Shown: positions 2,100 to 62,810 of the stretch, one piece after another
How positions within the stretch are numbered: position 1 is the stretch's first letter
Layout: the number at the start of each line of letters is the position of its first letter
Position numbers and translations under genes: made by a program
Notes under the pieces: model-generated
Seen by the model: only the letters and a program-made list of their open reading frames with translations
The model's database searches: none
What the model was told of the DNA's origin: nothing
Assembly (NCBI GenBank): GCA_963820035.1
Contig: CAWFYK010000002.1
Span: 724,524-788,523, forward strand
Source: an uncultured Actinomycetota bacterium
GTDB taxonomy: Bacteria > Actinomycetota > Actinomycetes > Propionibacteriales > Nocardioidaceae
DNA: 64,000 nt
Reading direction: 5' to 3'

Positions 2100-3960
2100 G
2101 CTCGACGGGGGGCGGGAGCGCCGTAGTCGGATGGACAGTCGCATATCGTTCGGGTCTGAGTTCCTTGGGTTCGAGATGATTGGGTATGCAGGGTCGTCCG
2201 CTTGATGAGCGTGAGTTGTTGGATGCCGAGTCGGTTGCTGGTCATTTGGTCGATGAGGGCAGCGTGTTCTGGTTGTTGGCCGAGCATCGCCGGGTGCTGT
2301 TCGCGGGGGCGATGTTCGCGGACCTGTTCCCTTCGGGTCGTGGTCGTCCCTCGGTACCGGTCGACATTGCCGCGTCGATCTTGGTCTTGCAGGCGTTGCA
2401 TGGGCTGTCGGACCGTGAAGCGATGGCCGCGTTACGGACTGATCTGCGGTGGAAGGTCGCGTGTGGTCTGCCGATCGGGCATGGCGGGTTCGACCCGTCG
2501 ACGTTGACGTATTGGCGCAAGCGCCTCGCGGCGAGCGCAGCGCCGAACCGGATCTTCGACGCGGTGAAGGCGGTGGTCGCGGAGACCGGGGTCCTCAATG
2601 GCAGGAACCGGCGGGCACTGGACTCGACCATCCTTGATGATGCGGTCGCGACCGAAGACACCGTGACGCAGCTGATCGCGGTGATCCGCAAGGTCCGTCG
2701 CGAGGTCCCCGGTGCTGCTGAGGTGGTGACCGAAAGGTGCAGTGCGCACGACTATGACAATCCGGGTAAGCCGCAGATCGCTTGGGACGACAGCGAAGCC
2801 CGCGCGGTCTTGGTCGATGCGTTGGTCCGCGACGCTCTCGCGCTGCTCGAGGTCCTCAGCACCTGGAGTCTGACGGGCCTGCGGCCGAGGCGGTCGCGTT
2901 GCTGGCGCTGATCGCGGGCCAAGACGTCGAGCCGGCGCCCGGGTCCGACGGCACCGACGGGCGCTGGCAGATCGCCCGCAGCGTCGCCCCGGACCGGGTG
3001 ATCAGCATCGTGGACCCCGAGGCGCGGCACGCCCATAAGACCGTGCATCGCCGCCAGGACGGGTTCAAGGCTCACCTCGCGGTCGAGCCCGAGACGGGGA
3101 TCACGACCGGGTGTGAGTTCACCAAGGCATCAGGCGTGGCGGCTGCGGACGGCACGACCGGGATCCGGCTCCTCGACCACGACACCACCCTGGCCGAGCT
3201 CGACCAGGACGAGGTCGCCGACGTGCTGGGTGACAGCGCCTACGGCACCGGTGACGCACTCGAGGCGATCATCGGAGCCGGGCACGTCCCCCTGGTCAAG
3301 CCGGGACCGCTCAAGGCGACCGTTCCGGGCGGGTTCACCCTGGACGACTTCACCATCGATGAGCAAGCCGGGACCGCGACCTGCCCCAACGGCTTGACCC
3401 GCCCGATCACCAAGACCCGAAAAGTGACCTTCGGGGCAGGCTGTCGAGAGTGCCCGCTCCGGGCGCTGTGCACGACCGCCAAGTCCGGCCGGATGCTGAA
3501 CCTGCACCAGCACCATGGGCTGCTGCGTGACCACCGCAAACGCGCGAAAGACCCTGCCTGGCAAGCCGCCTACCGCCAACACCGGCCGATGGTCGAGCGC
3601 TCGATCGCCTGGCTGGTCGCCGGCGGGAACGCAAGGTCCGCTACCGCGGCGTCACCAAAAACAACGCCTGGCTCCACAACCGCACCGCAGCCCTGAACCT
3701 GCGCCGACTGCTGAACCTCGGCCTCATCCGACAGCACGGGGCCGGGCCCTGGCCTGAGTCCAACAGCAGCCACCACAAGCCAGCATCCGAGGGCCCGCCA
3801 GGCCCCAGGACGCCCTACGCGGTCGACCATCGGCCACCTCGCGCACACCGAACGAGGCAGTCACAACCACGCCACGACACGTGACAAGTCCCCAGCCGAG
3901 CGAGCATCAGCTGACAACCCCCCGAAACAAGCCTTGTTCAGCAGTCTCCTAGTCAGGCGG
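2100..3960 (+). mobile_element. Decayed IS1182-family insertion sequence; ends not defined
   Basis: Contains the frameshifted transposase listed below. A C-terminal-like ...ALFSSLL coding remnant lies near 3930-3950. I could not verify terminal inverted repeats. Confidence 0.5.
2180..3882 (+). pseudogene. IS1182-family DDE transposase, disrupted by at least two frameshifts
   Basis: ORFs 2180..2911 and 2782..3696 plus a third frame (RKVRYRGVTKNNAWLHNRTAALNLRRLLNLGL...) together rebuild one transposase. Recognisable segments are LHGLSDREA...LRWKVACGL, RVISIVDPEARHAHKT, GDSAYGTGD and RPMVERSIAWLV. Frame switches fall near 2870-2910 and 3625. Confidence 0.75.
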
Positions 3961-3984
3961 CTCGAGTTGATCTAGACGTCAACA

Positions 3985-4192
3985 GCGCAGTGATGCGGCG
4001 GCTCTTCGGGGAAGCCGCGGTGACGTGGCGCCTCACCTCGGTCGAATGACATATCCACGCACCTGCGTTGATATGGCGGTTGGATCGGCAATCTGACCGC
4101 AACTTCCACGCACATGCGTGGATCCGTTCGCGAACGCCCGTGTGAGGCGCCAGGACAACGGATCGCGGCTCGAGAGCCGCTGCGTCACTGCG
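3985..4192. repeat. Head-to-head pair of an approximately 100-bp conserved module (P-module), each headed by an ATCCACGCA-NN-TGCGTGGAT-type palindrome
   Basis: Palindromes at 4051-4074 (ATATCCACGCACCTGCGTTGATAT) and 4105-4122 (TCCACGCACATGCGTGGA, perfect 8-bp arms). Each is followed outward by GTGAGGCGCCA(C/G)G...CAC and GAGCCGC(C/T)GC(A/G)TCACTGCGC blocks. A third copy lies at 22228-22318. Confidence 0.7.
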
Positions 4193-4517
4193 CCTTTTCA
4201 CCCCGAGGTCATCGCGAGTGACCTCTACTCCAGTGGCGGGACCACGGTGGGGTGGCTAGCATCGAAGTAATGGGTTGTGACGCTGCGGAGTTCCGCCAGT
4301 CAGGTGGGATCCGGAGGCTGGGCCAGTGAGGGCCCGCGCGCAACCCGACCCGATGGGCGGCCGACAGCTACACCTTCGGACGCGCCGACCGGGTCACTCT
4401 TCGGGCTACGCCGAGGGCTCCAGCAGACGACGAAGCAACTCGGCGCCCGACGATAAGACGGCCGCGGTGAGAGCCGGGTAGGTCGTCACGAAACCTGACC
4501 ATCGATTCGGCAACCAG

Positions 4518-5756
4518 TTGCCGAACAAGAAGGGAAGTGTCATGCCGGGAAACCGCGTAGTCGTATACAAGGGACCGGGCGAAGTGGCCGTCGAGAGCAC
4601 CGACTACCCCAAGCTCGAGCTGCCCGACGACGTAGCCAAGGGCATCGGGGTCAAGAAGAATGCTCCCCACGCCGCCATCCTCAAGCTCGTCACCACCAAC
4701 ATCTGTGGAAGCGACCAGCACATGGTCCGAGGGCGCACGACTGCGCCGGTCGGACAGACCCTCGGTCACGAGATCACCGGAGAGGTCGTCGAGGTCGGTG
4801 ACGACGTGCTGTTCGTGAAGGAAGGGGACATCTGCTCCGTCCCGTTCAACATCGCCTGCGGTCGATGCCGCATGTGCAACGAGGGTAAGACGGGGATCTG
4901 CCTGAACGTCAACCCTGCAAGGGCCGGGGCGGCGTACGGATATGTCGACATGGGCGGCTGGATCGGCGGCCAGGCGGAGTACGTCATGGTGCCCTACGCC
5001 GACTTCAACCTGCTCCGGTTCCCCGACCGGGACCAGGCCCTCGAGAAGATCCTGGACCTGACGATGCTCTCGGACATCTTCCCGACGGGCTATCACGGGG
5101 CCCACACGGCGGGCGTGACGAGCGGCTCCACCGTCTACGTCGCTGGGGCCGGACCGGTCGGCCTCGCCGCGGCATACTCCGCCCACCTCCTCGGTGCCGC
5201 AACCGTCATCGTCGGGGACATGAACCCGGAGCGGCTACGCCAGGCCGAGAGCTTCGGCTGCGAGACCGTCGACCTGAGCACGGGCGACGAGCTGGCCGAC
5301 CTCATCGCGAAGCTGCTCGGAGAACCGGAGGTCGACGCCGCCGTGGACGCTGTCGGCTTCGAGGCACGTGGCCACGGAGCCGACGCGGAGGAGGCGCCCG
5401 CGACCGTGCTCAACGACATCATGACGGTCGCTCGTGCCGGAGCCTCGCTCGGCATCCCCGGCCTGTATGTCACCGGTGACCCGGGCGGCATCGACGACAA
5501 CGCCAAAGTCGGCCAGATCGGTGTCAAGCTGGGTCTGGGCTGGGCAAAGTCGCACGCCTTCGTCACGGGCCAGTGCCCGGTGAAGCGCTACAACCGCCAG
5601 CTCATGAACATGATTCTGAGCGGCAAGGCCGAGATCGCGAAGGCGGTCAACGCGGTTGCAATCCCCTTGGACGACGCCCCGAAGGGCTACCGAGACTTCG
5701 ACAAGGGAGCAGCCAAGAAGTTCGTGCTCGACCCGCACGGGATGGTGCCTGCCTGA
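4518..5756 (+). CDS. fdhA: Glutathione-independent formaldehyde dehydrogenase (Zn-dependent MDR family)
   Basis: Near-colinear with Pseudomonas putida FdhA as I remember it (TNICGSDQHMVRGRTTA, VPFNIACGRCRMC, GYVDMGGWIGGQAEYV, VAGAGPVGLAAA). The start may instead be the second Met at 4542. Confidence 0.85.
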   Translation: MPNKKGSVMPGNRVVVYKGPGEVAVESTDYPKLELPDDVAKGIGVKKNAPHAAILKLVTTNICGSDQHMVRGRTTAPVGQTLGHEITGEVVEVGDDVLFVKEGDICSVPFNIACGRCRMCNEGKTGICLNVNPARAGAAYGYVDMGGWIGGQAEYVMVPYADFNLLRFPDRDQALEKILDLTMLSDIFPTGYHGAHTAGVTSGSTVYVAGAGPVGLAAAYSAHLLGAATVIVGDMNPERLRQAESFGCETVDLSTGDELADLIAKLLGEPEVDAAVDAVGFEARGHGADAEEAPATVLNDIMTVARAGASLGIPGLYVTGDPGGIDDNAKVGQIGVKLGLGWAKSHAFVTGQCPVKRYNRQLMNMILSGKAEIAKAVNAVAIPLDDAPKGYRDFDKGAAKKFVLDPHGMVPA

Positions 5757-10725: not shown

Positions 10726-10857
10726 CCGCCGAACCGTCACCTTCTTACCGCCGAACCGTCACCTTCTTACCGCCGAACCGTCACGTTCTTACCGCCGAAC
10801 CGTCACCTGCTTACCGCCGAACCGTCACGTTCTTACCGCCGAACCGTCAAGAAGTTC
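10726..10857. repeat. R22-A left arm, locus 1: 6 tandem 22-bp units CCGCCGAACCGTCACCTTCTTA
   Basis: Units start at 10726 + 22n. The last unit is the variant CCGCCGAACCGTCAAGAAGTTC. The array begins 4 bp after the qor-like stop codon. Confidence 0.95.
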
Positions 10858-10915
10858 CCGGCATGACGCCTCCGCGAGCAGCTCAAACAGCCGAGAGAAG
10901 AGATGGCGGCTGGAC

Positions 10916-11047
10916 TGCAAGAACCTGACGGCTCGACCGGAACAACCTGACGGCTCGACCGCAACAACCTGACGGCTCGACCGGAAGAACATGACGGCTC
11001 GACCGGAAGAACATGACGGCTCGAGGGTAATTACCTGACGGCTCGGC
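10916..11047. repeat. R22-A right arm, locus 1: 6 tandem 22-bp units GGAAGAACATGACGGCTCGACC (diverged inverse of the left arm)
   Basis: TGACGG anchor at 10926, 10948, 10970, 10992, 11014 and 11036. The last unit overlaps the 3' codons (RRAVR-stop) of the 11031..12317 ORF. Confidence 0.95.
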
Positions 11048-12317
11048 GAAGGCGAGCGACCGTCCGGCGTACGACCGGGTTGCGGCCGAGCCGCGCACGG
11101 ACCCCGGTCTGCCAGGAACGCGCGGTGGCCGGCCGGGCCCGCTCGTCCGCCACCAGCCCGTCGATCCGCTTCTGCTGACGCTCGACGCGTCGCAGCAGCT
11201 TGTCGCGCTCGGTCGTCAGTGCCTCGACCTGGTGACCGAGCTCGTCACCTTCCTGCCGAAGCTCGACCGCGTTGAGGACCATGCCGATGAGTCCCCCCGA
11301 CGCCGCCTGGAGCAGCTCCCGCTCGGTGGCCTCCGCCGGGTCGACGACATCGGACGGAGGATGCTCGGCTGGCACCAGCTCGGCCAGATCGCCTTCCACT
11401 CGGACGCCCGAAGTCTCGATCCCGGCGATCATCATGCGAGCGCGGTTGCGCACCCAGCCCTGCTGCTCGGGCGAGAGCGCGAAGCGCGGCTCCAGGCCGG
11501 CTCTGGTCGCGATGAGCGCTCCGCCCAGAGCGCCCCGGTAGCCATAAGGCTTCTCTGTTGCCATCCCCGGGTACTCGAGATTGAGCTGTCTCATCAGCTC
11601 GGCCGAGTGGGCGCCGAGCGACGAGTTGACCAGCGTCTCGGGTTGCTCGAGGCCCGTCATCGGAATCCCGAGCACCGAGCCGATGCGCCCGACGACGATC
11701 TCGGGAGTGGTTCCGGTGGGCGGCACCGTCACCACGGTGATCCGGTCGAGGGGGACCACCTGCTGCCATTGAGCGAAAATCGTCGTCACGTCGTGGACCT
11801 TCCAGAACCAGTCGCGCAGTCGAGTGGCGTCGCTCGCGGCCGCATCGCCGGATGGGGCATCCTCGTCGCCTGCCGGGGTGCCGTCAGAGCAGACGGCCGC
11901 CGCGAAGTCGTTCCAGCCGACGGTCTTGCCGCCCTTGATCGTCGTCTGCCAATGCGAGGGGATCAACTGGGCCGGATCCCGCACCGTGATGACGACGTTG
12001 AGCTCGACGTGCCTGAACCCATGCACGATGGTCCGGACCGAACGGGTTCCGCCACCGGCGATGAGCTCGTTGACGATCATCACGTCACCGTCGTGCTGGT
12101 TGACCTGGCGCACCAGCCGACGCCAGGTGTTGCCCCCCGGAGCGTCCGCCTTGGACATGCGCCCCAGCAGGTCCCGCACCGCGTCGTAACGGATGGTGCC
12201 GGCCACCCACAGCAACCCTTCCTCGGCAAGGCGTTGCGCGTTGAGCTCACCAACCTGTTGGACGTATGACGTCCCGGTCTTCATCTCGCCGATGTGCAGG
12301 AAGACCCGTCGCGCCAT
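11031..12317 (-). CDS. Hypothetical protein with a sulfotransferase-like N-terminal P-loop motif and a C-terminal coiled-coil-like region
   Basis: 428-aa ORF. HIGEMKTGTSYVQ resembles the 5'-PSB loop of sulfotransferases. The family call is tentative. Confidence 0.45.
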   Translation of the reverse strand: MARRVFLHIGEMKTGTSYVQQVGELNAQRLAEEGLLWVAGTIRYDAVRDLLGRMSKADAPGGNTWRRLVRQVNQHDGDVMIVNELIAGGGTRSVRTIVHGFRHVELNVVITVRDPAQLIPSHWQTTIKGGKTVGWNDFAAAVCSDGTPAGDEDAPSGDAAASDATRLRDWFWKVHDVTTIFAQWQQVVPLDRITVVTVPPTGTTPEIVVGRIGSVLGIPMTGLEQPETLVNSSLGAHSAELMRQLNLEYPGMATEKPYGYRGALGGALIATRAGLEPRFALSPEQQGWVRNRARMMIAGIETSGVRVEGDLAELVPAEHPPSDVVDPAEATERELLQAASGGLIGMVLNAVELRQEGDELGHQVEALTTERDKLLRRVERQQKRIDGLVADERARPATARSWQTGVRARLGRNPVVRRTVARLRRAVR

Positions 12318-16883: not shown

Positions 16884-18191
16884 ATGCCCACCACCTTTGA
16901 CTCCGACGCGGAGGCAGCGGGACTGTGCGCCTTCGTCGATGCGTCCCCTTCGCCGTTCCATGCCTGCACTGAGGCGGCCGCAGTCCTCGAGGCCAGCGGC
17001 TTCACGGCGCTCGACGAGACGGCCGGCTGGCCGCGCGAACCTGGCCGCTACTACACGACTCGCGGCGGCTCACTCGTCGCCTGGAGCACGGAGTACGCCG
17101 ATGGCCGCGCGACGCCGTTCCGCGTCGTCGGAGCCCACACGGACAGCCCCAACCTGCGGATCAAGCCACGCCCCGACGTCTCCCGCGCCGGCTGGCGGCT
17201 GCTCGGCGTCGAGGTCTACGGCGGTCCGCTGCTGAACTCCTGGCTCGACCGCGATCTCGGGCTCTCGGGGCGCGTCACTGTCCGGGGAGCGAGCGGCGTG
17301 GAGGAGCGGCTGGTCGCGATCAACGACCCGATCCTGCGGGTCGCGCAGCTCGCGGTGCATCTCGACCGCGAGGTCAACGAAGCCGGAGTGAAGCTCAACC
17401 CGCAGCAGCACCTCGCACCGATCTGGGGCGTTGGCACGGAGCCGGGCGACTTCCGCGCCATGGTCGCCGACACCGTGGGGTCCGAGCGTGACGACGTCCT
17501 GGGCTGGGACCTGATGACCCACGACCTCACCCCCTCGCGCCGCATCGGTCAGGACCGGGAGCTCATCGCGGCGCCTCGCCTCGACAACCTCGCCACGACG
17601 TACGCCGGGGTGAGGGCGATGGTCACGGCCGTCGAGACGGCTCCCGCGTCGCCCCAGGTGCTGGTGCTCGTCTTGTTCGACCACGAGGAGAACGGCAGCA
17701 TGTCCGAGCGCGGCGCCTTCTCGACGCTGCTGCCCGCCACGTTGGAGCGAATCGTGATCACCCGCGGCGGTGATCGGGAGGACTACCTGAGGGCCCTTGC
17801 CGGATCCGTCATCGCGTCCGGCGACATGGGTCACGCGACCCACCCCAACTACGCCGAGCGACACGAGCCACAGCACCAGATCGCCGTCAACGGCGGCCCG
17901 GTGCTGAAGGTCAACAACCGGCTGCGCTATGCGACCGACGCGCGGGGGACGGCGGCGTTCTCGCTCGCGTGCGCGCAGGCCGGCGTACCTGTCCAGCAGT
18001 TCGTCGGGCGCTCCGACATCCCGTGTGGCTCGACGGTCGGCCCGATGACGGCCGCCCTCACCGGAGCGACGACCGTGGACTTCGGGGCGGCTGCCCTGTC
18101 GATGCACTCGGCGCGAGAGCTGTGCGGCGCGGATGACCCCGCGATGTACGCCGCCGCCCTGGCCGCCTTCCTGTCCCCCGCCGCCCCTTGA
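16884..18191 (+). CDS. apeB: M18-family aspartyl aminopeptidase
   Basis: MPTTFDSDAEA..., SPSPFHA, VGAHTDSPNLRIKP, LFDHEENGS, SMHSARE. The ORF upstream of ATG 16884 is antisense to the permease and not protein-like. Confidence 0.8.
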   Translation: MPTTFDSDAEAAGLCAFVDASPSPFHACTEAAAVLEASGFTALDETAGWPREPGRYYTTRGGSLVAWSTEYADGRATPFRVVGAHTDSPNLRIKPRPDVSRAGWRLLGVEVYGGPLLNSWLDRDLGLSGRVTVRGASGVEERLVAINDPILRVAQLAVHLDREVNEAGVKLNPQQHLAPIWGVGTEPGDFRAMVADTVGSERDDVLGWDLMTHDLTPSRRIGQDRELIAAPRLDNLATTYAGVRAMVTAVETAPASPQVLVLVLFDHEENGSMSERGAFSTLLPATLERIVITRGGDREDYLRALAGSVIASGDMGHATHPNYAERHEPQHQIAVNGGPVLKVNNRLRYATDARGTAAFSLACAQAGVPVQQFVGRSDIPCGSTVGPMTAALTGATTVDFGAAALSMHSARELCGADDPAMYAAALAAFLSPAAP

Positions 18192-18244
18192 CCATCCGAG
18201 ACGTCCGGAAGTCTCGGATGGTGGTGCCGGAAGTCTCGGATGGT
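18191..18244. repeat. Minimal R22-B element: one inverted unit plus two direct units that form a perfect hairpin between convergent genes
   Basis: ACCATCCGAGAC (18191-18202), loop GTCCGGAA, GTCTCGGATGGT (18211-18222), then a second direct unit to 18244. It fills the whole gap between the apeB stop (18189-18191) and the marR-like stop (18253-18255). Confidence 0.85.
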
Positions 18245-18252
18245 TGGGGGGG

Positions 18253-19061: not shown

Positions 19062-20333
19062 ATGACCCGCGCGCGCCTGATCACGGCAGCCGCCTTCGCC
19101 GGAAACCTCGGCTGGGGGGCGATCCTGCCCTACCAGTACGCCTACGTGGTCGACGCCCGCCACTGGGGCCCGACGACCGGCGTCCTCACCGGCACCTTGT
19201 TCTGCATCGGGGCCGTCATCGCCGCGCCGCTGGCGGGCCGGCTCGCCGACCGCTACTCCGCCGGGCGCCTCGCCGTCGGGTTCGAGCTGCTCGCCGCCGT
19301 CGCCTGCCTCGCGATGGGCGCCGCGGGCACGGCCACCCTCTTCCTCGCCGGGATGCTGGTGTTCGGCGCGGCCGTCACGGCCTCGCAACCCGCCACCCAG
19401 GTGCTCGTGCTCGAGTGCGTCGAGCCGCAGAACCGCCGGGCGATCTTCGCCTACCAGTTCACCGCGATGGCTCTGGGGATGGCCGTGGGCTCCTTCACGG
19501 CCGGTTGGCTGATCGACTTCAGCGAGCCGAACGGGATGTGGCCGGCGTTCGCCGCTGCCGCGCTCGGATTCGCCGTCTCGGCGGGGTTCATCAAGGCCGC
19601 CGCACGTACGACGACGTACCCCGCCTGCGACTCCCTGGTCACCACGACCGAGTCGATCGACAACGAGCACGTCGGGCTAGCCGCCTACAAGAAGCTGGCG
19701 CACAACCGGCCCGTGCGGCTGTTCGCCATCGTGTCCATGCTGCTGGCGGCGGGCTTCTATGCCCAGTTCGAGACCGGGCTGCCGGCGTTCGCGCTCAAGT
19801 CGCTCGACGTGGCACCCAGCACTGTCGGCACCGCCGCCGCGGTGAACTGCGTGGTCATCGTCGCGCTGCAGTGGCTCGTCGTGAAGATCACCGGCAAGAA
19901 CCCTGGGGCCGTCCTCCTCGCCGTGGTCGGGTCCATCTGGGTGCTGAGCTGGCTGCTCCTCGAGCTCGCTCTCTTCACCGGACCGGCGAGCGCGAACGTC
20001 ATCTTCGTCGTCGCCTTCGGCATCTTCGCGGTCGGCGAGACGATGTATGCACCCGTGCTGAGCCCGCTCGCCGCGGCAGTTGCCCCGGATGGGATGGTCG
20101 GCACCACGCTCGGCGCCCTCGCGGGTCTGCGGACCGGCATCAGCGCCGCGGGCCCGCTGGTCGCCGGCCTGCTGATCTCGGCGTCGCTCCCGCACGTCTT
20201 CGTGTTGCTGCACGTGGCGATCAACATCGCGGCGGTCACGGTGGCATTGCGCCTCTGGTCCGTCCAGCGCCGCGCCTCGGTCCCGGTTGAGGTGGATAAT
20301 GAACAGACCGACCTGAGGAGCGCCCGTGTCTGA
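19062..20333 (+). CDS. MFS transporter
   Basis: MTRARLITAAAFAGNLGWG..., about 12 TM segments by eye, GAGGAGGA RBS upstream of ATG 19062. Divergent from the MarR gene. Confidence 0.8.
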   Translation: MTRARLITAAAFAGNLGWGAILPYQYAYVVDARHWGPTTGVLTGTLFCIGAVIAAPLAGRLADRYSAGRLAVGFELLAAVACLAMGAAGTATLFLAGMLVFGAAVTASQPATQVLVLECVEPQNRRAIFAYQFTAMALGMAVGSFTAGWLIDFSEPNGMWPAFAAAALGFAVSAGFIKAAARTTTYPACDSLVTTTESIDNEHVGLAAYKKLAHNRPVRLFAIVSMLLAAGFYAQFETGLPAFALKSLDVAPSTVGTAAAVNCVVIVALQWLVVKITGKNPGAVLLAVVGSIWVLSWLLLELALFTGPASANVIFVVAFGIFAVGETMYAPVLSPLAAAVAPDGMVGTTLGALAGLRTGISAAGPLVAGLLISASLPHVFVLLHVAINIAAVTVALRLWSVQRRASVPVEVDNEQTDLRSARV

Positions 20334-22196: not shown

Positions 22197-22227
22197 CTTT
22201 GGCCCGGTTTCCCTGGTCAGCTCGGCA

Positions 22228-22318
22228 ATATCAACGCAGGTGCGTGGATGTGTTCCGCAGCCCAGCGTGAGCCGCCACGTCACACGAGTATCGCGGGAGC
22301 CGCTGCGGTCACGGCGCC
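22228..22318 (+). repeat. Third copy of the P-module (palindrome ATATCAACGCAGGTGCGTGGAT plus two conserved blocks)
   Basis: 22228-22249 matches the reverse complement of 4051-4074 at 22 of 24 positions. GTGAGCCGCCACGTCAC (22267-22283) and GGGAGCCGCTGCGGTCACGGCGCC (22295-22318) match the blocks at 4019-4035, 4142-4159 and 4171-4192. Confidence 0.7.
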
Positions 22319-22381
22319 CTTGTGCCGCCGACGCGAGAGAAGATCCCGGCGGACCCTTGCGCCGTCGTACCCCAGGTCGTC

Positions 22382-22572
22382 AAAACTCTCGGATCGTCGT
22401 ACCGAAACTCTCGGATCGTCGTGCCGAAACTCTCGGATCGTCGTGCCGAAACTCTCGGATCGTCGTACCGAAACTCTCGGATCGTCGTACCGAAACTCTC
22501 GGATCGTCGTGCCAAAACTCTCGGATCGTGGTGCCGAAACTCCCGGATCGTGGTGCCGAAACTCTCGGATCG
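22382..22572 (+). repeat. R22-B single-arm array: 9 tandem 22-bp units (GAAACTCTCGGATCGTCGTACC / ..GTGGTGCC)
   Basis: TCGGATCG anchor at 22389 + 22n (n=0..8; unit 8 carries TCCCGG). The last unit runs straight into the stop codon of the GroES-like gene (22573-22575). Confidence 0.95.
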
Positions 22573-22914
22573 TCAGAGGTAGAGGCCGGTGGCGCCTTCT
22601 TCGACGCGTTCGGAGGCGACGGCGTGCAGGTCGCGCTCGCGGAGCAGGATGTACATGTCGCCGCGCACCTCGACCTCGGCCTTGTCCTCGGGGTCGAAGA
22701 GCACCCGATCGCCCGCCTCCACGGTGCGGACGTTGGCCCCGACACCGGCCACCCGCGCCCAGGCGAGCCGGCGGCCCATCATCGCAGTCGCCGGGATGAC
22801 GATCCCGGCCGAGGACTTGCGCTCACCGGCCTCGGCGTCGAGCTGGACGAGCACCCGGTCGTGGAGCATCCGGATCGGCAGCTTCTCGACCGGAGTTGGT
22901 GTGTTCTTCGTCAC
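22573..22914 (-). CDS. GroES-like co-chaperonin family protein (non-canonical)
   Basis: IRMLHDRVLVQ..., SAGIVIP, GDRVLF, GDMYILLRERDLHAV follow the GroES pattern. It is not adjacent to a groEL. Confidence 0.55.
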   Translation of the reverse strand: MTKNTPTPVEKLPIRMLHDRVLVQLDAEAGERKSSAGIVIPATAMMGRRLAWARVAGVGANVRTVEAGDRVLFDPEDKAEVEVRGDMYILLRERDLHAVASERVEEGATGLYL

Positions 22915-23778: not shown

Positions 23779-23861
23779 GCCAGAGTGGTGGAATTGGCAG
23801 ACACGCGGGCTTTAGGTGCCCGTGCCCTTTGGGCGTGAGGGTTCGAGTCCCTTCTCTGGTA
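23779..23861 (+). tRNA. tRNA-Leu (anticodon UAG), class II with a long variable arm; no encoded CCA
   Basis: Acceptor GCCAGAG/CTCTGGT, anticodon stem CGGGC/GCCCG with loop TTTAGGT, variable arm GCCCTTTGGGCG, T-arm GAGGGTTCGAGTCCCTT. Confidence 0.9.
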
Positions 23862-32270: not shown

Positions 32271-32986
32271 GACGCGAGCGCCTCCTGCTGCATCCGAGTC
32301 AGATCGGCGCATCCCTTGACGGCGAGCTCGAGAAGCGCGTCGAGCTCCGCGCGGCCGAACGGGTCGGCCTCCGCCGTGCCCTGCACCTCGACGTAGCGCC
32401 CGTCGCCGGTCATCACGACGTTCATGTCGGTCTCCGCCCGCACGTCCTCCTCGTATGGCAGGTCGAGACGCGGCTCGCCGTCGACCAGCCCCACGGAGAC
32501 CGCGGCCACGGAGCCACGCAACGGCTCGCCCTTGAGCGCGCCTCGGCCGCGGAGGTGCTGCACCGCGTCGGCGAGGGCGACGTAGGCACCGGTGATGGAT
32601 GCGGTGCGGGTGCCGCCGTCGGCCTGGAGGACGTCGCAGTCGAGCACGATCGTGTTCTCACCGAGCGCCCGGTAGTCGATGACGGCGCGGAGCGACCGGC
32701 CGATGAGCCGTGAGATCTCGTGGGTACGGCCCCCGATGCGGCCTTTGACGGACTCACGGTCGGACCGGGTGTGGGTCGAGCTCGGCAGCATCGCGTACTC
32801 GGCGGTCACCCAACCGAGCCCGCTGTCCTTGCGCCACCGAGGGACGCCGGTGGTGGCGCTGGCGACACACAGCACCCGGGTGCGGCCGAACTCGACGAGC
32901 ACAGAGCCGGCTGCGTGGTCGAGCCAGTTCCGGTTGAGGGTGATGGGGCGCAGTTCGTCGGCCGCACGGCCGTCAGCTCGGGTCAT
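32267..32986 (-). CDS. rph: Ribonuclease PH
   Basis: [56 protein letters not shown]. Confidence 0.9.
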
Positions 32987-33054
32987 GGCGCCGACCCTAT
33001 CGCCGGGCTCGAGACGGGCCGGACCCGATCGGCCGCGCCCATCAGGGGCCCCTG

Positions 33055-33100
33055 CCCGGTGGCCAGCCCGGTGGCCAGCCCGGTGGCCAGCCCGGTGGCC
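33055..33100. repeat. 12-bp tandem repeat CCCGGTGGCCAG, about 3.8 copies
   Basis: Units at 33055, 33067 and 33079, with a partial unit at 33091. Lies in the rph / ECF-sigma divergent intergenic region. Confidence 0.9.
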
Positions 33101-33149
33101 ATATCCGGTCGCCGCGCATCGCCGGCTCGGCGGCCCCGGACGAACTGCC

Positions 33150-33191
33150 GTGACGGGTTTGGCGTGACGGGTTTGGCGTGACGGGTTTGGC
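33150..33191. repeat. 14-bp tandem repeat GTGACGGGTTTGGC x3, immediately upstream of a -10-like GATAAT
   Basis: Units at 33150, 33164 and 33178. GATAAT at 33203-33208 sits 6 nt before the GTG start of the sigma factor (33215), suggesting a leaderless mRNA. Confidence 0.85.
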
Positions 33192-34434: not shown

Positions 34435-34660
34435 GCAACCATCCGAGAGTTTCGGCACCACCATCCGAGACTTCCGGCACCACCATCCGAGAGTTCCGGT
34501 ACGACGATCCGAGACTTCCGGCACCACCATCCGAGAGTTCCGGCACCACCATCCGAGAGTTCCGGCACGACGATCCGAGACTTCCGGCACCACCATCCGA
34601 GAGTTCCGGCACCACCATCCGAGAGTTCCGGTACGACGATCCGAGACTCCCGGCATCGGC
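34435..34660. repeat. R22-B composite copy 1, left arm: 10 tandem 22-bp units (ACCACCATCCGAGAGTTCCGGC type)
   Basis: ATCCGAG anchor at 34441 + 22n (n=0..9) with no phase slips. Two sub-types are interleaved (ACCACCATCC / ACGACGATCC). Confidence 0.95.
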
Positions 34661-34924
34661 ATGGCCGGCTGCGGGGTCCCCTCTGTCAAGCGGCGTGCGT
34701 TGGTCGGGACGTGAAGAACAGCGGTGACGGCGGCTTTCGAGCTGCTCGTGTTGGTATGGCGCCGCGCGTCTGGGCCGGTGAACACAATCACGTTCGCAAA
34801 CAAAGAAGTTCGGCGCCAGTGCGACGGAACCACCTCGAGGGCCGTTGCGTCACTGCCGTTGTTCACGTCCCGAGCAACGCACGCCGCCTGAAGGAAGCGA
34901 CCCGCAATCGGGCTGTGCCGCAGG
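34661..34924. other. R22-B 264-bp core, copy 1 (internally palindromic, non-coding)
   Basis: Identical by eye to 41403-41666. Contains 43-nt imperfect inverted arms around a 118-nt, less GC-rich centre. Confidence 0.85.
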
Positions 34925-34925
34925 G

Positions 34926-35227
34926 TCGGATCGTGGTGCCGGAACTCTCGGATCGTCGTACCAAAACTCTCGGATCGTCCTACCAAAACTCTCGGATCGT
35001 GGTGCCGGAACTCTCGGATGGTCCTGCCAAAACTCTCGGATCGTACGTACCAAAACTCTCGGATCGACGTGCCAAAACTCTCGGATCGTCCTACCAAAAC
35101 TCTCGGATCGTCGTACCAAAACTCTCGGATCGTCGTACCAAAACTCTCGGATCGTGGTGCCAGAACTCTCGGATCGTGGTGCCAGAACTCTCGGATCGTG
35201 GTGCCAGAACTCTCGGATGGTCGGGAG
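34926..35227. repeat. R22-B composite copy 1, right arm: one partial plus 13 tandem units (GGAACTCTCGGATCGTGGTGCC type)
   Basis: TCGGATCG anchor at 34948 + 22n. A single 23-bp unit shifts the phase by +1 from 35059. The array ends 18 bp before the MBL stop codon. Confidence 0.95.
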
Positions 35228-39626: not shown

Positions 39627-40952
39627 GTGCACACGACGGGTCTGCTGACCGACCACTACGAGCTCACGATGGTGCAAGCGGCGCTTCGATCGGGCACCGC
39701 CGAGCGGTCGAGCGTCTTCGAGGTGTTCGCCCGCCGGCTGCCGGACGGCCGTCGTTACGGTGTCGTCGCCGGGACCGGCCGGATCCTCGATGCGCTCTCG
39801 TCGTTCCGCTTCGACTCCTCCCAGCTCGGCTGGCTCGCCGACAACGGCATCGTCGACGAGCCGACGCTGGAATGGCTGTCCCGCTACCACTTCAGTGGCA
39901 CGATCTCCGGCTACGGCGAGGGCGACGCCTACTTCCCGGGCAGCCCGATCCTGGTGGTCGAGGCCAGCTTCGCCGAGGGAGTGCTGCTCGAGACGCTGAT
40001 CCTGTCGATCCTCAACCACGACTCGGCCGTGGCATCAGCGGCATCTCGGATGAGCCGGGCTGCTGAGGGGCGGCCGTGCATCGAGATGGGCTCCCGCCGT
40101 ACCCACGAGCGGGGAGCGGTCGCGGCCGCCCGAGCCGCCTACATCACGGGCTTCTCGGCGACCTCGAACCTGCAGGCCGGTCTCGACTACGGCGTCCCGA
40201 CGGCCGGCACCGCCGCCCACTCGTTCACGCTGCTGCACGACAGTGAGCGCGACGCCTTCACGACCCAGGTCGAGACGCTCGGGCGGGGTACGACGCTGCT
40301 CGTCGACACCTACGACGTCGGGGAGGCGGTGAAGACGGCCATCGACGTCGCGGGACCCGAGCTGGGCGCGGTGCGGATCGACTCAGGCGACCTGAGCCTG
40401 CTCGCCAAGCAGGTACGCCGCCAGCTCGACGAGCTCGGTGCGACGGCGACCCGCATCATCGTGACGAGCGACTTGGACGAGTTCTCGATCGCCGGGCTCT
40501 CCGGCGCCCCCGTGGACGGCTACGGCGTGGGGACCTCCCTCGTCACCGGCTCCGGCTCCCCCACGTGCGGGTTCGTCTACAAGCTCGTCGCGCGGGCGCT
40601 GTCCGGCGAGCCAGGCGGCACGCTGCTCCCGGTCGCGAAGAAGAGCAGCCACAAGATGAGCGTGGGCGGCCGCAAATGGGCGGTCCGGCGATGTGACGCT
40701 CGCGGCAACGCCGTCGCCGAGGTGCTCGGGGTGGGCGAGCTGCCCGCCCTCGACTCGAACGAACGGCCGCTGCTCGTCCCGCTCGTGAGCGGCGGCGAGG
40801 TCGTCGGTCGGGAGACGCTCGACGACGCCCGGGCACGCCATGAACGCGCGATGGCGGAGCTGCCGGTCGAGGCCGGCAAGCTGTCGCACGGCGAGCCGGC
40901 GATCGACACCGAGTTCGTCATCCCCGACCCAGCCGCCGCCGCCCGCTCGTAG
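39627..40952 (+). CDS. pncB: Nicotinate phosphoribosyltransferase
   Basis: LLTDHYELTMVQAAL, FEVFARRLP, EMGSRRTH, GTAAHSF, VRIDSGDL. Confidence 0.9.
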   Translation: MHTTGLLTDHYELTMVQAALRSGTAERSSVFEVFARRLPDGRRYGVVAGTGRILDALSSFRFDSSQLGWLADNGIVDEPTLEWLSRYHFSGTISGYGEGDAYFPGSPILVVEASFAEGVLLETLILSILNHDSAVASAASRMSRAAEGRPCIEMGSRRTHERGAVAAARAAYITGFSATSNLQAGLDYGVPTAGTAAHSFTLLHDSERDAFTTQVETLGRGTTLLVDTYDVGEAVKTAIDVAGPELGAVRIDSGDLSLLAKQVRRQLDELGATATRIIVTSDLDEFSIAGLSGAPVDGYGVGTSLVTGSGSPTCGFVYKLVARALSGEPGGTLLPVAKKSSHKMSVGGRKWAVRRCDARGNAVAEVLGVGELPALDSNERPLLVPLVSGGEVVGRETLDDARARHERAMAELPVEAGKLSHGEPAIDTEFVIPDPAAAARS

Positions 40953-40956
40953 TACC

Positions 40957-41402
40957 CCGACGATCCGAGACTTTCGGCACCACCATCCGAGAGTTTTGGT
41001 ACGACCATCCGAGAGTTTCGGCACCACCATCCGAGAGTTTCGGTACGACGATCCGAGAGTTCCGGCACCACCATCCGAGAGTTCTGGCACCACCATCCGA
41101 GAGTTCTGGTACGACGATCCGAGAGTTCCGGCACCACGATCCGAGAGTTCCGGCACCACCATCCGAGAGTTCCGGCACCACCATCCGAGAGTTCCGGCAC
41201 CACCATCCGAGAGTTCCGGCACCACCATCCGAGAGTTCCGGCACCACCATCCGAGAGTTCCGGCACCACCATCCGAGAGTTCCGGCACCACCATCCGAGA
41301 GTTCCGGCACCACCATCCGAGAGTTCCGGCACCACCATCCGAGAGTTCTGGCACCACCATCCGAGAGTTCTGGCACGACGATCCGAGACTTCCGGCACCA
41401 CC
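40957..41402. repeat. R22-B composite copy 2, left arm: 20 tandem 22-bp units
   Basis: ATCCGAG anchor at 40963 + 22n (n=0..19) with no phase slips. Eight consecutive units (41161-41336) are identical. The array starts 4 bp after the pncB stop. Confidence 0.95.
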
Positions 41403-41666
41403 ATGGCCGGCTGCGGGGTCCCCTCTGTCAAGCGGCGTGCGTTGGTCGGGACGTGAAGAACAGCGGTGACGGCGGCTTTCGAGCTGCTCGTGTTGGTATG
41501 GCGCCGCGCGTCTGGGCCGGTGAACACAATCACGTTCGCAAACAAAGAAGTTCGGCGCCAGTGCGACGGAACCACCTCGAGGGCCGTTGCGTCACTGCCG
41601 TTGTTCACGTCCCGAGCAACGCACGCCGCCTGAAGGAAGCGACCCGCAATCGGGCTGTGCCGCAGG
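41403..41666. other. R22-B 264-bp core, copy 2
   Basis: Base-for-base equal (by eye) to 34661-34924 at a constant offset of 6,742. Inverted arms at 41429-41471 and 41590-41632 are 38/43 complementary. Confidence 0.85.
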
Positions 41667-41828
41667 GTCGGATCGTGGTGCCGGAACTCTCGGATCGTGG
41701 TGCCGGAACTCTCGGATCGTGGTGCCGGAACTCTCGGATCGTACCAAAACTCTCGGATCGCCTACCGAACTCTGGATCGCTACAAAACTCTCGGATCGTA
41801 TCGTCGTACCAAAACTCTCGGATCGTCG
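41667..41828. repeat. R22-B composite copy 2, right arm: about 7 units, progressively degenerate
   Basis: TCGGATCG at 41668, 41690, 41712 and 41734 is in phase. After that come irregular units at 41753, 41771 (TCTGGATCG), 41791 and 41818. Confidence 0.85.
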
Positions 41829-41829
41829 A

Positions 41830-41850
41830 GGGAGGGGAGGGAGGGGAGGG
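41830..41850 (+). other. G-quadruplex-type motif GGGAGGGGAGGGAGGGGAGGG
   Basis: Five G3-4 runs separated by single A residues, between the right arm and the DUF1697 stop codon (41851-41853). Confidence 0.6.
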
Positions 41851-42402
41851 TCAGGTGAGGGTGGGGGACGGCGCGGCCCACTTGTCGGCGAGGGCGGTGA
41901 CGACCTTCCAGTCGCGGCTCGTCGCGGCGAGCCCGGCTAGCTTCTCGATCCGCGCGTTGTTGGCCTTGGCCTCGTGGGAGGGCTTGGCGAGCCACATGTG
42001 GAGGTCGCGGCCGACCAGCTGCAGCCGCTCGCCGTCGACGTCCCAGCCGTTCAGTCGCTTCGTCGCCTCCGCTGCAGGCTCAGACCGCAGGAAGCTCAGA
42101 TAGTGCCGGGCGTCGTCGCCCAGCGGGTTGTCCGGGGCGGACTCGACGATGGCCCGGAGCTGCTTCGGCGTCCGCACCAGGGCCGGCACGGCGAACCCGA
42201 GCTGCTCCTCCAGCGCCGTCTCCATCATCGTCTCCACCTTCGCGGTGGACCTGGCCCGCGAGACGACGCACACGTTGCCGCTCTGGATGTGCGTCTCCAC
42301 CTCCGTGAAGCCGGCGTCGACGAGATGACCACGGAGCGCCTCCATCTTCACGAAACGGCCGCCCACGTTGACCGCTCGGAGGAACGCGATGTACGTCGCC
42401 AT
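41851..42402 (-). CDS. DUF1697-domain protein
   Basis: MATYIAFLRAVNVGGRFVKMEALR...VETHIQSGNV. The part of ORF 41851..42600 upstream of this Met is not needed. Confidence 0.7.
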   Translation of the reverse strand: MATYIAFLRAVNVGGRFVKMEALRGHLVDAGFTEVETHIQSGNVCVVSRARSTAKVETMMETALEEQLGFAVPALVRTPKQLRAIVESAPDNPLGDDARHYLSFLRSEPAAEATKRLNGWDVDGERLQLVGRDLHMWLAKPSHEAKANNARIEKLAGLAATSRDWKVVTALADKWAAPSPTLT

Positions 42403-42589
42403 GGCGGCCAAGCCTACCCAGACACGGCCCGGCCCGCCGTCGGCGTCAGCCTCCCCCGAGCATCGCCTTGAGGAAGCCGACGACGTCTCACGGATGCCTC
42501 CTGGGTGCCGTGAGTGACCGTCTCTGATCTTCTGCCCGACCCCACGCCTGGTCAAGACATCGTTCCGAGACCCTTCTCTGATCGCGCGG

Positions 42590-46893: not shown

Positions 46894-47047
46894 CCGTCGA
46901 GCCGTCACCTTCTTACCGCCGAACCGTCACCTTCTTACCGCCGAACCGTCACCTTCTTACCGCCGAACCGTCACCTTCTTACCGCCGAACCGTCACCTTC
47001 TTACCGCCGAACCGTCACCTTCTTACCGCCGAACCGTCAAGAAGTTC
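46894..47047. repeat. R22-A left arm, locus 2: 7 units (1 degenerate, 5 perfect CCGCCGAACCGTCACCTTCTTA, 1 terminal variant)
   Basis: Perfect units start at 46916 + 22n (n=0..4). The terminal variant CCGCCGAACCGTCAAGAAGTTC (47026-47047) is the same as at locus 1. Confidence 0.95.
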
Positions 47048-47090
47048 CCAGTACGACGCCCCGCGCGGGAGCGTCATATCGTTGGCCGAC

Positions 47091-47288
47091 GGAACAAACC
47101 TGACGGCTCGACCGGAAGAACATGACGGCTCGACCGGAACAACCTGACGGCTCGACCGCAACAACCTGACGGCTCGACCGGAACAACCTGACGGCTCGAC
47201 CGGAAGAACATGACGGCTCGACCGGAAGAACCTGACGGCTCGACCGGAACAACCTGACGGCTCGACCGGAAGAACATGACGGCTCGCC
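47091..47288. repeat. R22-A right arm, locus 2: 9 units GGAAGAACATGACGGCTCGACC / GGAACAACCTGACGGCTCGACC
   Basis: TGACGG anchor at 47101 + 22n (n=0..8). The array ends 5 bp before the hppD stop codon (47294-47296). Confidence 0.95.
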
Positions 47289-47293
47289 GGAGG

Positions 47294-53763: not shown

Positions 53764-53773
53764 CCCGGATCCG

Positions 53774-55038: not shown

Positions 55039-55097
55039 GCGCACCATCCTCCACCGACCGTCTCGAAGGCACGGACCTGCTGGACCATGCTGGACTG

Positions 55098-55154
55098 CGG
55101 TAGAGGCCATCAGCGAAGTGCACGTCGCGGGTCAAGGCGAGCCTCATCGCCTGT
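55098..55154 (-). promoter_or_regulatory. Fluoride riboswitch (crcB RNA motif)
   Basis: Minus-strand RNA: ACAGGCGAUGAGGCUCGCCUUGACCCGCGACGUGCACUUCGCUGAUGGCCUCUACCG. It shares GGCGAUGAGGC.CGCC and CUGAUGGCCUCUAC with the Thermotoga petrophila fluoride riboswitch as I recall it. Located about 60 nt upstream of the crcB-DUF190-crcB operon. Confidence 0.85.
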
Positions 55155-55196
55155 GCAACGAGTCTGCCCCAGACCACGGGGCTAGGCAAGCGAGAG

Positions 55197-62561: not shown

Positions 62562-62571
62562 GAAGATATCT

Positions 62572-62810
62572 CCTTCTCACGCCTGTGAGGTGAGCTGTCG
62601 GGTTCGAGCGAGAAGGTGCCCGGCCGTCAAAGGACGACTTAACCCCAAGCATGCCTACGGAAGACCGTTTCGATGCAGAAGAGTGGTTCCCCCACTTCTA
62701 CCCCTGAATGAGAGTTTCTGTGATTGGCGATTGGGTCGTAGTCGACACGGGGTAGAACTCGGCGTCCGTCGACCACGCTCTTCAGTTTTGGGTCCCGAGG
62801 ATCTAACCAC
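62572..62810 (-). promoter_or_regulatory. Probable cyclic-di-AMP riboswitch (ydaO/yuaA motif) in the 5' leader of the NlpC/P60 gene
   Basis: The minus-strand RNA contains CGGGACCCAA, GGGGUAGAAG, GGGGGAACC, UGGGGUUAAGUC and AACCCGACAGCUCACCUCACAGGCGUGAGAAGGAG. Compare Bacillus subtilis ydaO: GGGGGACCCA, GGGGUGAAUC, ACCCGAAUCCGUCAGCUAACCUCGUAAGCG. Boundaries are approximate. Confidence 0.6.

Follow-up and report, generated by a model that had tools for sequence, protein, structure and literature searches.

The 64,000-nucleotide stretch analysed here (the window; positions 724,524 to 788,523 of contig CAWFYK010000002.1 in GenBank assembly GCA_963820035.1, from an uncultured bacterium of the Nocardioidaceae) carries a ~0.9-kb non-coding element that fills the entire gap between the convergent genes pncB and DUF1697, and in which a 265-bp core is flanked by two arms of tandem 22-bp units in opposite orientation. 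An identical core with arms of different length lies nearer the start of the window, and we refer to the two elements as copy 2 (at pncB) and copy 1. On balance, copy 2 is probably an insertion of a lineage-specific, non-autonomous, non-coding dispersed repeat of the same kind as repetitive extragenic palindromes (REPs) and bacterial interspersed mosaic elements (BIMEs), miniature inverted-repeat transposable elements (MITEs) or the tuberculosis Rho-independent terminator motif (TRIT), with foldback-like arms made of variable-number tandem repeats (VNTRs). The repeat family, apparently undescribed, appears to belong to uncultured Nocardioidaceae-like actinobacteria, and literature searches returned no description of the 22-bp family. 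The parts of copy 2, followed by copy 1, are these:

40953-40962, plus strand: linker of 10 nt (TACCCCGACG), by its sequence a partial unit whose 3' tail ...CCGACG leads into the first full unit
40963-41402, plus strand: left arm of copy 2, 20 in-phase 22-bp units with the consensus ATCCGAGAGTTCCGGCACCACC (Tandem Repeats Finder, TRF, and unit comparison)
41403-41667, no strand assigned: core, 265 bp, non-coding, an imperfect hairpin identical to 34661-34925 (alignment and RNA fold)
41416-41471, no strand assigned: left half of the core inverted repeat, pairing with 41590-41645 (56 nt, 84% complementary, 118-nt loop)
41590-41645, no strand assigned: right half of the core inverted repeat
41668-41828, minus strand: right arm of copy 2, the left-arm unit reverse-complemented; 3 perfect units (41668-41733), then ~4 decayed units with indels
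41829-41850, no strand assigned: tract of five G-runs (GGGAGGGGAGGGAGGGGAGGG) from the right arm to the DUF1697 stop, C/T-rich on the sense strand of the gene
34441-35223, no strand assigned: copy 1 composite, with left arm 34441-34660 (10 units), core 34661-34925 and right arm 34926-35223 (13.5 units)

Pairwise alignment and exact comparison matched 41402-41698 to 34660-34956 at an offset of 6,742, a run of 297 bp with zero differences that takes in the 265-bp core, a single base to the left of it and 31 bp of the right arm. The first-pass annotation had read this base-for-base identity by eye, continuing about 30 bp into the right arm, and the alignment bears out both statements. Its unit counts held up as well: TRF returned 20.1 copies (93% matches) for the 20 left-arm units in phase at 40963+22n, 7.5 copies (78% matches, 17% indels) for a right arm described as shorter, decaying and of about 7 units, of which 3.4 copies (41668-41742) are perfect, and 9.9 and 13.5 copies for the arms of copy 1, which had been counted as 10 and 13. 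The arms of the two copies are ~90% alike and differ in unit number, in the order of unit variants and in higher-order structure, the left arm of copy 1 showing a 66-bp super-repeat and that of copy 2 a homogeneous run of nine identical units in mid-arm (41139-41336) with the variants placed distally. With cores 100% identical and arms divergent, the earlier proposal of recent core copying by transposition or gene conversion stands, and we infer from the sequences that the core was recently copied between loci 6.7 kb apart, either by insertion or by gene conversion.

Chance is excluded as the source of the repeats, because the two-unit pattern, present 44 times in the window, never appears in 100 shuffles of it. 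Among the 59 in-phase units of the window, variation falls mostly at positions 9, 12, 13, 16, 19 and 22, and the block ATCCGAGA.TT is nearly invariant. The arrays do not resemble a CRISPR array, their units being contiguous without spacers and no cas domains being present among the scanned neighbours. At most related loci, too, the array is preceded by a partial unit of the linker type.

Since the two arms are reverse complements of each other (41114-41188 against 41668-41742; 75 nt, 97% complementary) and the core is itself a hairpin, the whole element amounts to an imperfect palindrome of ~870 bp; its outermost sequences, CGACGATCCGAG...CTCGGATCGTCG, form terminal inverted repeats, and the imperfect inverted repeat inside the core spans 56-73 nt on either side of a 118-nt centre. 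Folded as single-stranded DNA, the element gives a single hairpin of -274.5 kcal/mol, compared with -170 +/- 7 kcal/mol for shuffled sequence (z -15), and the core as RNA reaches -163.1 kcal/mol on the plus strand (z -9.8) and -150.7 kcal/mol on the minus strand (z -8.3). The 22-bp unit is not self-palindromic, with z values of -0.4, +0.4 and +0.3 for single and three tandem units and of +2.7 for the second unit family described below (family A). The left arms contain zero stop codons in all six frames and are therefore crossed by long spurious open reading frames (ORFs), and the ORFs called in the element are spurious throughout, running through repeats only. Rfam gave no match to the element, whether at the gathering threshold or with E relaxed to 10; we found no promoter-like site and no U-tract in it, and terminator-like sites were no commoner than in shuffles. 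The adjoining G-run tract, GGGAGGGGAGGGAGGGGAGGG at 41829-41849, might form a G-quadruplex.

The surrounding DNA is ordinary actinobacterial chromosome with housekeeping neighbours, and the named PncB homologues come from metagenome-assembled genomes (MAGs) of Nocardioidaceae. The genes on either side of copy 2 are:

39627-40952, plus strand: pncB (nicotinate phosphoribosyltransferase; Pfam NAPRTase_N, E=2e-26), stop TAG at 40950-40952
41851-42411, minus strand: DUF1697 gene, convergent with pncB (Pfam DUF1697, E=7e-35)

The N-terminal domain match agrees with the first-pass naming of the gene that ends at TAG 40950-40952. Copy 1 is flanked by a glyoxalase-family gene (plus strand) and a metallo-beta-lactamase-fold gene (minus strand). 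In the nearest retrievable relative (locus L056), which shares the gene order and has a PncB 83% identical to that of the window, both sites are empty, the gap between the glyoxalase and lactamase-fold genes being 10 bp and pncB overlapping DUF1697. Conversely, L056 carries a 487-bp composite (19249-19735; a 22-bp array of 7.5 copies, a 206-bp core and an inverted array of 5.3 copies) between an FGE-sulfatase gene and crcB, where the window has an empty site of 10 bp (53764-53773, CCCGGATCCG, overlapping CGGAT and ATCCG). Because orthologous sites are thus filled and empty in both directions, elements have appeared or disappeared over the time that species take to diverge. Simple segmental duplication, which the first-pass annotation had thought unlikely, is excluded by the different flanking genes of the two copies and by the syntenic relative that lacks both insertions. 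A further relative (L057, from MAG Co_metawrap_536) has a single unit-like sequence directly after the pncB stop, in a 58-bp gap (5059-5116; TAG CATCCGCTGCCC...), which may be what is left of an array at this junction, or the seed of one.

Two full copies within 7 kb had suggested a wider repeat family, and such a family is found both in the window, which holds four sites with the unit of copies 1 and 2 (family B) and two family A composites, and in public MAGs. A scan with a relaxed three-unit pattern returned 16 metagenome contigs and 39 loci in species-representative genomes; 35 of the 39 loci are high-GC, all from Propionibacteriales, Nocardioidaceae or Actinomycetota MAGs and none from a cultured species, and one MAG alone accounts for 25 loci. 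Together with ~11 metagenome contigs, these 35 loci make up the family of 22-bp "ATCCGAG" arrays. The strict two-unit pattern had 0 matches in the genome contig collection, and neither a scan of viral contigs nor BLAST against plasmids and phages gave a match. Arm/arm composites, which are coreless hairpins or have a core of 65-200 bp, account for roughly one element in four, and the remainder are single arms. Each 22-bp period consists of a conserved block of 11-15 bp and a variable spacer, and unit variants recur at loci with unrelated flanks. The species-level MAGs L022 and L048 share an orthologous element at a common junction with flanks ~90% identical; its unit numbers differ in both arms, as expected from the earlier view that the arms are VNTRs, and the block ATCCGAGACTT is invariant. 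Arrays in short-read assemblies have at most 7 units (mostly 3-5), and contigs L004, L009 and L010 end inside them.

Some matches to the relaxed pattern lie on low-GC contigs, namely L004 and L009 (GC 34-40%), L013, L039, L046, L053 and L055, assigned to Bacteroides, Prevotellaceae, Leptospiraceae and others (for example AACTCGGATAACTCGGATATAA); these are probably coincidences of pattern, and show that 22-bp minisatellites recur in distant bacteria. We also considered whether inverted array pairs 0.7-1.1 kb apart are composites with cargo and rejected the idea: the genes inside are ordinary (alpha/beta hydrolase, mycothiol S-transferase) or fragments, and such adjacency is expected at the observed array density. 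Between two inverted arrays of L030 (3337-4333) lies an apparent deletion remnant in which the N-terminus of an amino-acid-binding protein is fused to the C-terminus of an ABC ATPase, a reading based on the translations, for which Pfam gave no match.

The arrays are closely tied to gene ends. With gene contexts taken from a self-trained gene caller, the outer end of 43 of the 56 classifiable arrays adjoins the stop of a sense-strand gene; in 36 of these 43 at most 11 nt separate that stop from the first ATCCG, the commonest spacing being 2 nt (TGAC[C/G]ATCCG). Convergent junctions hold 27 of 50 arrays, where 8.4 are expected (p=2e-11). In co-directional gene pairs, one end of the array touches a stop, a spacer of 49-1,048 nt lies opposite, and the two array orientations occur ~10:9, on which ground we rejected the arrays as strand-specific 3'-untranslated-region signals. 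A lone ATCCG after stops as a general signal was likewise rejected (9 observed against 8 expected).

The ends of the adjoining genes are themselves atypical. The base after the stop is C in 32 of 36 array-adjacent genes compared with 150 of 304 others (p=4e-6), TAA is the stop in 9 of 36 compared with 7 of 304 (p=4e-6), and the C fraction over the last seven codons is 0.50 compared with 0.37 (p=3e-11). The last ~10 codons of pncB (IPDPAAAARS) are C-rich and unlike those of all three relatives, and the DUF1697 protein carries a C-rich C-terminal extension of 7-8 residues (AAPSPTLT-stop) that is absent in L056 and L057. At the site that is filled in L056, the FGE-sulfatase ends in ...ANPA-stop, compared with ...ANDD-stop and ...ANDV-stop where the site is empty, and crcB is one terminal codon shorter. 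In the window, the gene at 11031-12317 has its last five codons and TAA stop inside a family A unit (right-arm overlap 11031-11045). Because array-adjacent ends are atypical and C-termini change at filled sites, the element, as far as sequence comparison goes, appears to provide its neighbours with their terminal codons and stop. The effect is confined to the last few codons, since 22-mers upstream match the unit no better than controls; degenerate full units reaching into the upstream ORF were accordingly rejected (6.8 and 6.5 of 22 matches one and two periods upstream, control 6.1).

Other repeats in the window are related to copies 1 and 2 to varying degrees:

22197-22574, no strand assigned: degenerate relative, with a core-like segment of 186 bp (22197-22382) and 8.7 units in minus orientation only (22383-22574)
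18189-18245, no strand assigned: minimal B element of one unit, an inverted unit and one more unit, with a hairpin stem of ~17 bp (fold -39.4 kcal/mol, z -5.3)
3940-4215, no strand assigned: armless palindrome that resembles the core but has diverged, ~250 bp downstream of an IS5/IS1182-like transposase
10726-11045 and 46894-47291: family A composites, with the unit CCGCCGAACCGTCACCTTCTTA in one arm, a diverged version of it inverted in the other, and between them a core of ~50-57 bp

The degenerate relative runs from stop to stop between a GNAT gene (plus strand) and a Cpn10 gene (minus strand), and the minimal element spans the gap between a plus-strand gene and a MarR gene (minus strand). 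Families A and B have in common the 22-bp period and the arm-core-arm design; L058 14687-14766 is a further family A site. Altogether, six elements (four B-unit sites and two A composites) occupy ~4% of the 64 kb, and by our gene calls they fill 5 of ~12 convergent junctions, the second A copy lying between co-directional genes. The IS5/IS1182-like transposase at 2246-3696 is split into two ORFs (DUF772 domain, 2246-2911; DDE_Tnp_1_6, 2899-3696), is probably a frameshifted or decayed insertion sequence, and has no terminal inverted repeats that we could find; the 3940-4215 palindrome sits in the 670-bp non-coding stretch that follows it. No Y1 transposase was present among the 31 window proteins scanned. 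Elsewhere in the window, perfect tandem repeats of GCCCGGTGGCCA (four copies, 33054-33101) and CGTGACGGGTTTGG (three copies, 33149-33191) occupy a divergent promoter region between gene starts at 32986 (minus) and 33227 (plus) and look like operator sites. Rfam matched a c-di-AMP riboswitch (62565-62739, minus), a fluoride riboswitch (55094-55160, minus), which lies upstream of crcB-DUF190-crcB genes, and a tRNA (23779-23861, plus).

If copy 2 is an insertion of a dispersed repeat, the family would spread as non-autonomous DNA by means of an enzyme encoded elsewhere, which would recognise the conserved ATCCGAGA.TT block, repeated every two helical turns, as in MITE/foldback systems or in REPs with their REP-associated tyrosine transposases (RAYTs). 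Copies would persist only in the few dispensable bases at the 3' ends of genes, where the outer C-rich flank of the element would become the last codons and stop of the neighbour, and the arms would then lengthen and shorten through replication slippage and unequal exchange. The core could be copied by inserting into the middle of an arm/arm hairpin that was already there, or through gene conversion with the arms as homology. As a side effect, read-through transcripts of both convergent genes could form a very long hairpin. A bolder proposal, decidedly tentative, is that the elements would be foldback-type mobile DNA, the first in bacteria: a recombinase or transposase dedicated to them would bind the 22-bp units phased at two helical turns and insert the palindrome precisely at gene-end junctions, giving both neighbours new terminal codons and stops, and paralogues of the enzyme would account for the period and architecture common to families A and B.

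Several observations weigh against a mobile repeat. We detected no target-site duplication at copy 1, at copy 2 (flanks TACCC and AGGGA) or at related composites, and no transposase in the window with ends matching the element; the sole window transposase, the IS5/IS1182-like one, shares no detected termini with the core. The core itself was found in the window only, as two identical copies and two diverged relatives, and not outside the 64 kb. Many related loci have one arm and no inverted partner, so that a simple model of a transposon with terminal inverted repeats fails for them. Contact with the stop is near-exact even in co-directional pairs that offer 66-625 nt of free spacer, which is sharper than selection alone predicts. 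Finally, homology between the A and B units is unsupported, the best rotation giving 11-13 of 22 matches (p 0.09-0.5).

In other readings the elements serve the host, and the more serious of these, if still unlikely, is that they are bidirectional terminators or stabilisers of mRNA 3' ends, a Nocardioidaceae counterpart of TRIT or REPs kept for function. Elements span from stop to stop between convergent genes, coreless composites in related loci fold as strong hairpins (z -4.9 to -7.3), and the element of L022 and L048 has been kept in two species with its ATCCGAGACTT block invariant. TRIT is likewise palindromic, bidirectional and narrowly placed around stops (PMC3152330), and REPs lie downstream of ORFs with termini able to supply stop codons (PMC3733652). 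Yet roughly half the related loci are single arms that are unstructured alone (z about 0 or positive), the element lacks any U-tract or terminator-like site that we could find, a U-tract being reported as needed by mycobacterial RNA polymerase (PMC3993855), and the ~10:9 orientation in co-directional pairs means that there is no conserved strand-specific RNA signal; moreover, 20 units are far more than a terminator requires, and orthologous junctions work without the element. It is very unlikely, in our view, that the arrays are instead phased protein-binding sites, whether iteron-like 22-bp sites for a nucleoid-associated protein, gyrase or a partition factor, or a C-rich strand acting after the stop as a loading (rut) site for Rho. 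The conserved block of 11-15 bp with a variable spacer every 22 bp, the single period of two dissimilar unit families and the lack of structure in single arms are all of the sort such sites would show. REP and BIME elements do bind gyrase and IHF, and many plasmid iterons are ~22 bp long. The mRNA strand is the C-rich one in 29 cases and the G-rich one in 14, with 12 even, but this bias is weak and is reversed in one sub-family, the arrays have no fixed orientation to genes and no consistent rep, par or regulator neighbour, and copy number runs from 3 to 20 with no obvious dosage logic.

The absence of a detected target-site duplication or transposase, together with the abundance of solo arms, would also fit a history without transposition, in which arrays arise and expand in place and similarity between loci, the identical core included, is kept by homologous recombination or gene conversion. 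The 297-bp tract is asymmetric to the core and ends 31 bp into one arm, as a conversion tract could, and the arms are ~90% alike at a distance of 6.7 kb. We nevertheless consider this quite unlikely: conversion needs a homologous array to be present beforehand, so that the first arrival at dozens of unrelated gene ends is left unexplained, as are the empty and filled orthologous sites, and identical unit variants occur at loci with unrelated flanks. That the core encodes a structured non-coding RNA to which the arms are incidental is highly improbable, despite its very stable predicted fold, which is stronger on the plus strand, and the two diverged core-like sequences in the window; it matches no Rfam family and has no promoter-like site, the halves of the 3940-4215 palindrome have decayed independently with no compensatory changes seen in an alignment inspected by eye, and composites elsewhere have unrelated, unstructured cores (z +0.4 in L056; +0.3 and -1.1 in family A). 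An assembly artefact, with arrays and duplicated core produced by metagenome mis-joins, is scarcely credible. Short-read contigs often break in such arrays, but the unique flanks differ between the two copies and agree with conserved synteny, the arm variants stand in locus-specific orders, the arm-core-arm architecture is seen independently in other assemblies, and an identical PncB protein (P0001) is on record on a 1.27-Mb contig.

The elements all but vanish from short-read assemblies and so make up an unrecorded level of genome organisation in a group of actinobacteria common in soil; they provide natural VNTR markers and a case of a repeat apparently rewriting the last codons and stop of its neighbours, and two unrelated families of 22-bp units with one architecture point to a length-measuring protein or process.

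Like REPs, BIMEs and REPINs, which are short, non-coding, high-copy extragenic repeats that often occur as inverted pairs forming larger hairpins and vary in number between strains (PMC3733652), the elements are extragenic, sit downstream of ORFs and favour convergent junctions; REPs lie mostly between convergent or unidirectional genes, and it is their GTAG-type termini that can supply stop codons (PMC3733652). A REP unit, however, is an imperfect palindrome of 20-40 bp with its own stem-loop, whereas the 22-bp unit has no self-structure, and BIMEs alternate in orientation where the present arrays run head to tail for up to 20 units in a high-GC actinobacterial host. As for the end tetranucleotide of REPs (GTAG/CGTC), minus-orientation ...TACGACG variants begin with CGTC, and the commonest variant begins with GGTG or CGTG. 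TRIT, compared here for its positional behaviour only, is also a dispersed palindromic repeat of one actinobacterial lineage located at stops, with 147 copies that act in both directions, occupy a very narrow position around the stop codon and overlap the end of the coding sequence (PMC3152330); it differs in being a single conserved hairpin with neither tandem arrays nor a separate core. By analogy, the positional behaviour of the elements matches that of REPs and, above all, of mycobacterial TRIT, and, if functional, they would join TRIT as a second case, in actinobacteria, of a gene-end signal that is sequence-specific.

Among mobile repeats, the BrickBuilt/MITEPgRS MITEs of Porphyromonas gingivalis are similarly non-autonomous, intergenic and a few hundred bp long, are present in ~20 copies and contain a spacer-less tandem repeat of ~22-23 nt (41 nt in PgRS) whose number varies, but BrickBuilt holds one direct array between a unique leader and tail with IS5-type terminal inverted repeats and lies 49-591 nt from genes (PMC4596501), whereas in the present elements arrays form the inverted arms, unique sequence lies in the middle and stops are touched. 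With MITEs in general, the element has in common its terminal inverted repeats, its small size (~870 bp), its non-coding character and its multiple copies, and it differs in having no target-site duplication. Plasmid iterons and centromere arrays differ in that the elements have no rep or par neighbour and no match in plasmid or phage collections. Mycobacterial interspersed repetitive unit (MIRU) VNTRs are intergenic tandem repeats of variable copy number that abut or overlap stops, with units of 40-100 bp that are oriented with the operon and translatable in phase; unlike the present arrays, they do not form inverted pairs around a core. The eukaryotic foldback (FB) transposons have long inverted arms of tandem sub-repeats whose number varies between arms and between copies, a central domain that is variable or absent, and outer repeats more degenerate than inner ones. 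The elements described here have these features too, their arms holding 10/13 units in one copy and 20/7 in the other, whereas FB transposons are eukaryotic and have target-site duplications and transposases, neither of which we found for these elements; if the elements are mobile, they would extend the foldback design to bacteria.

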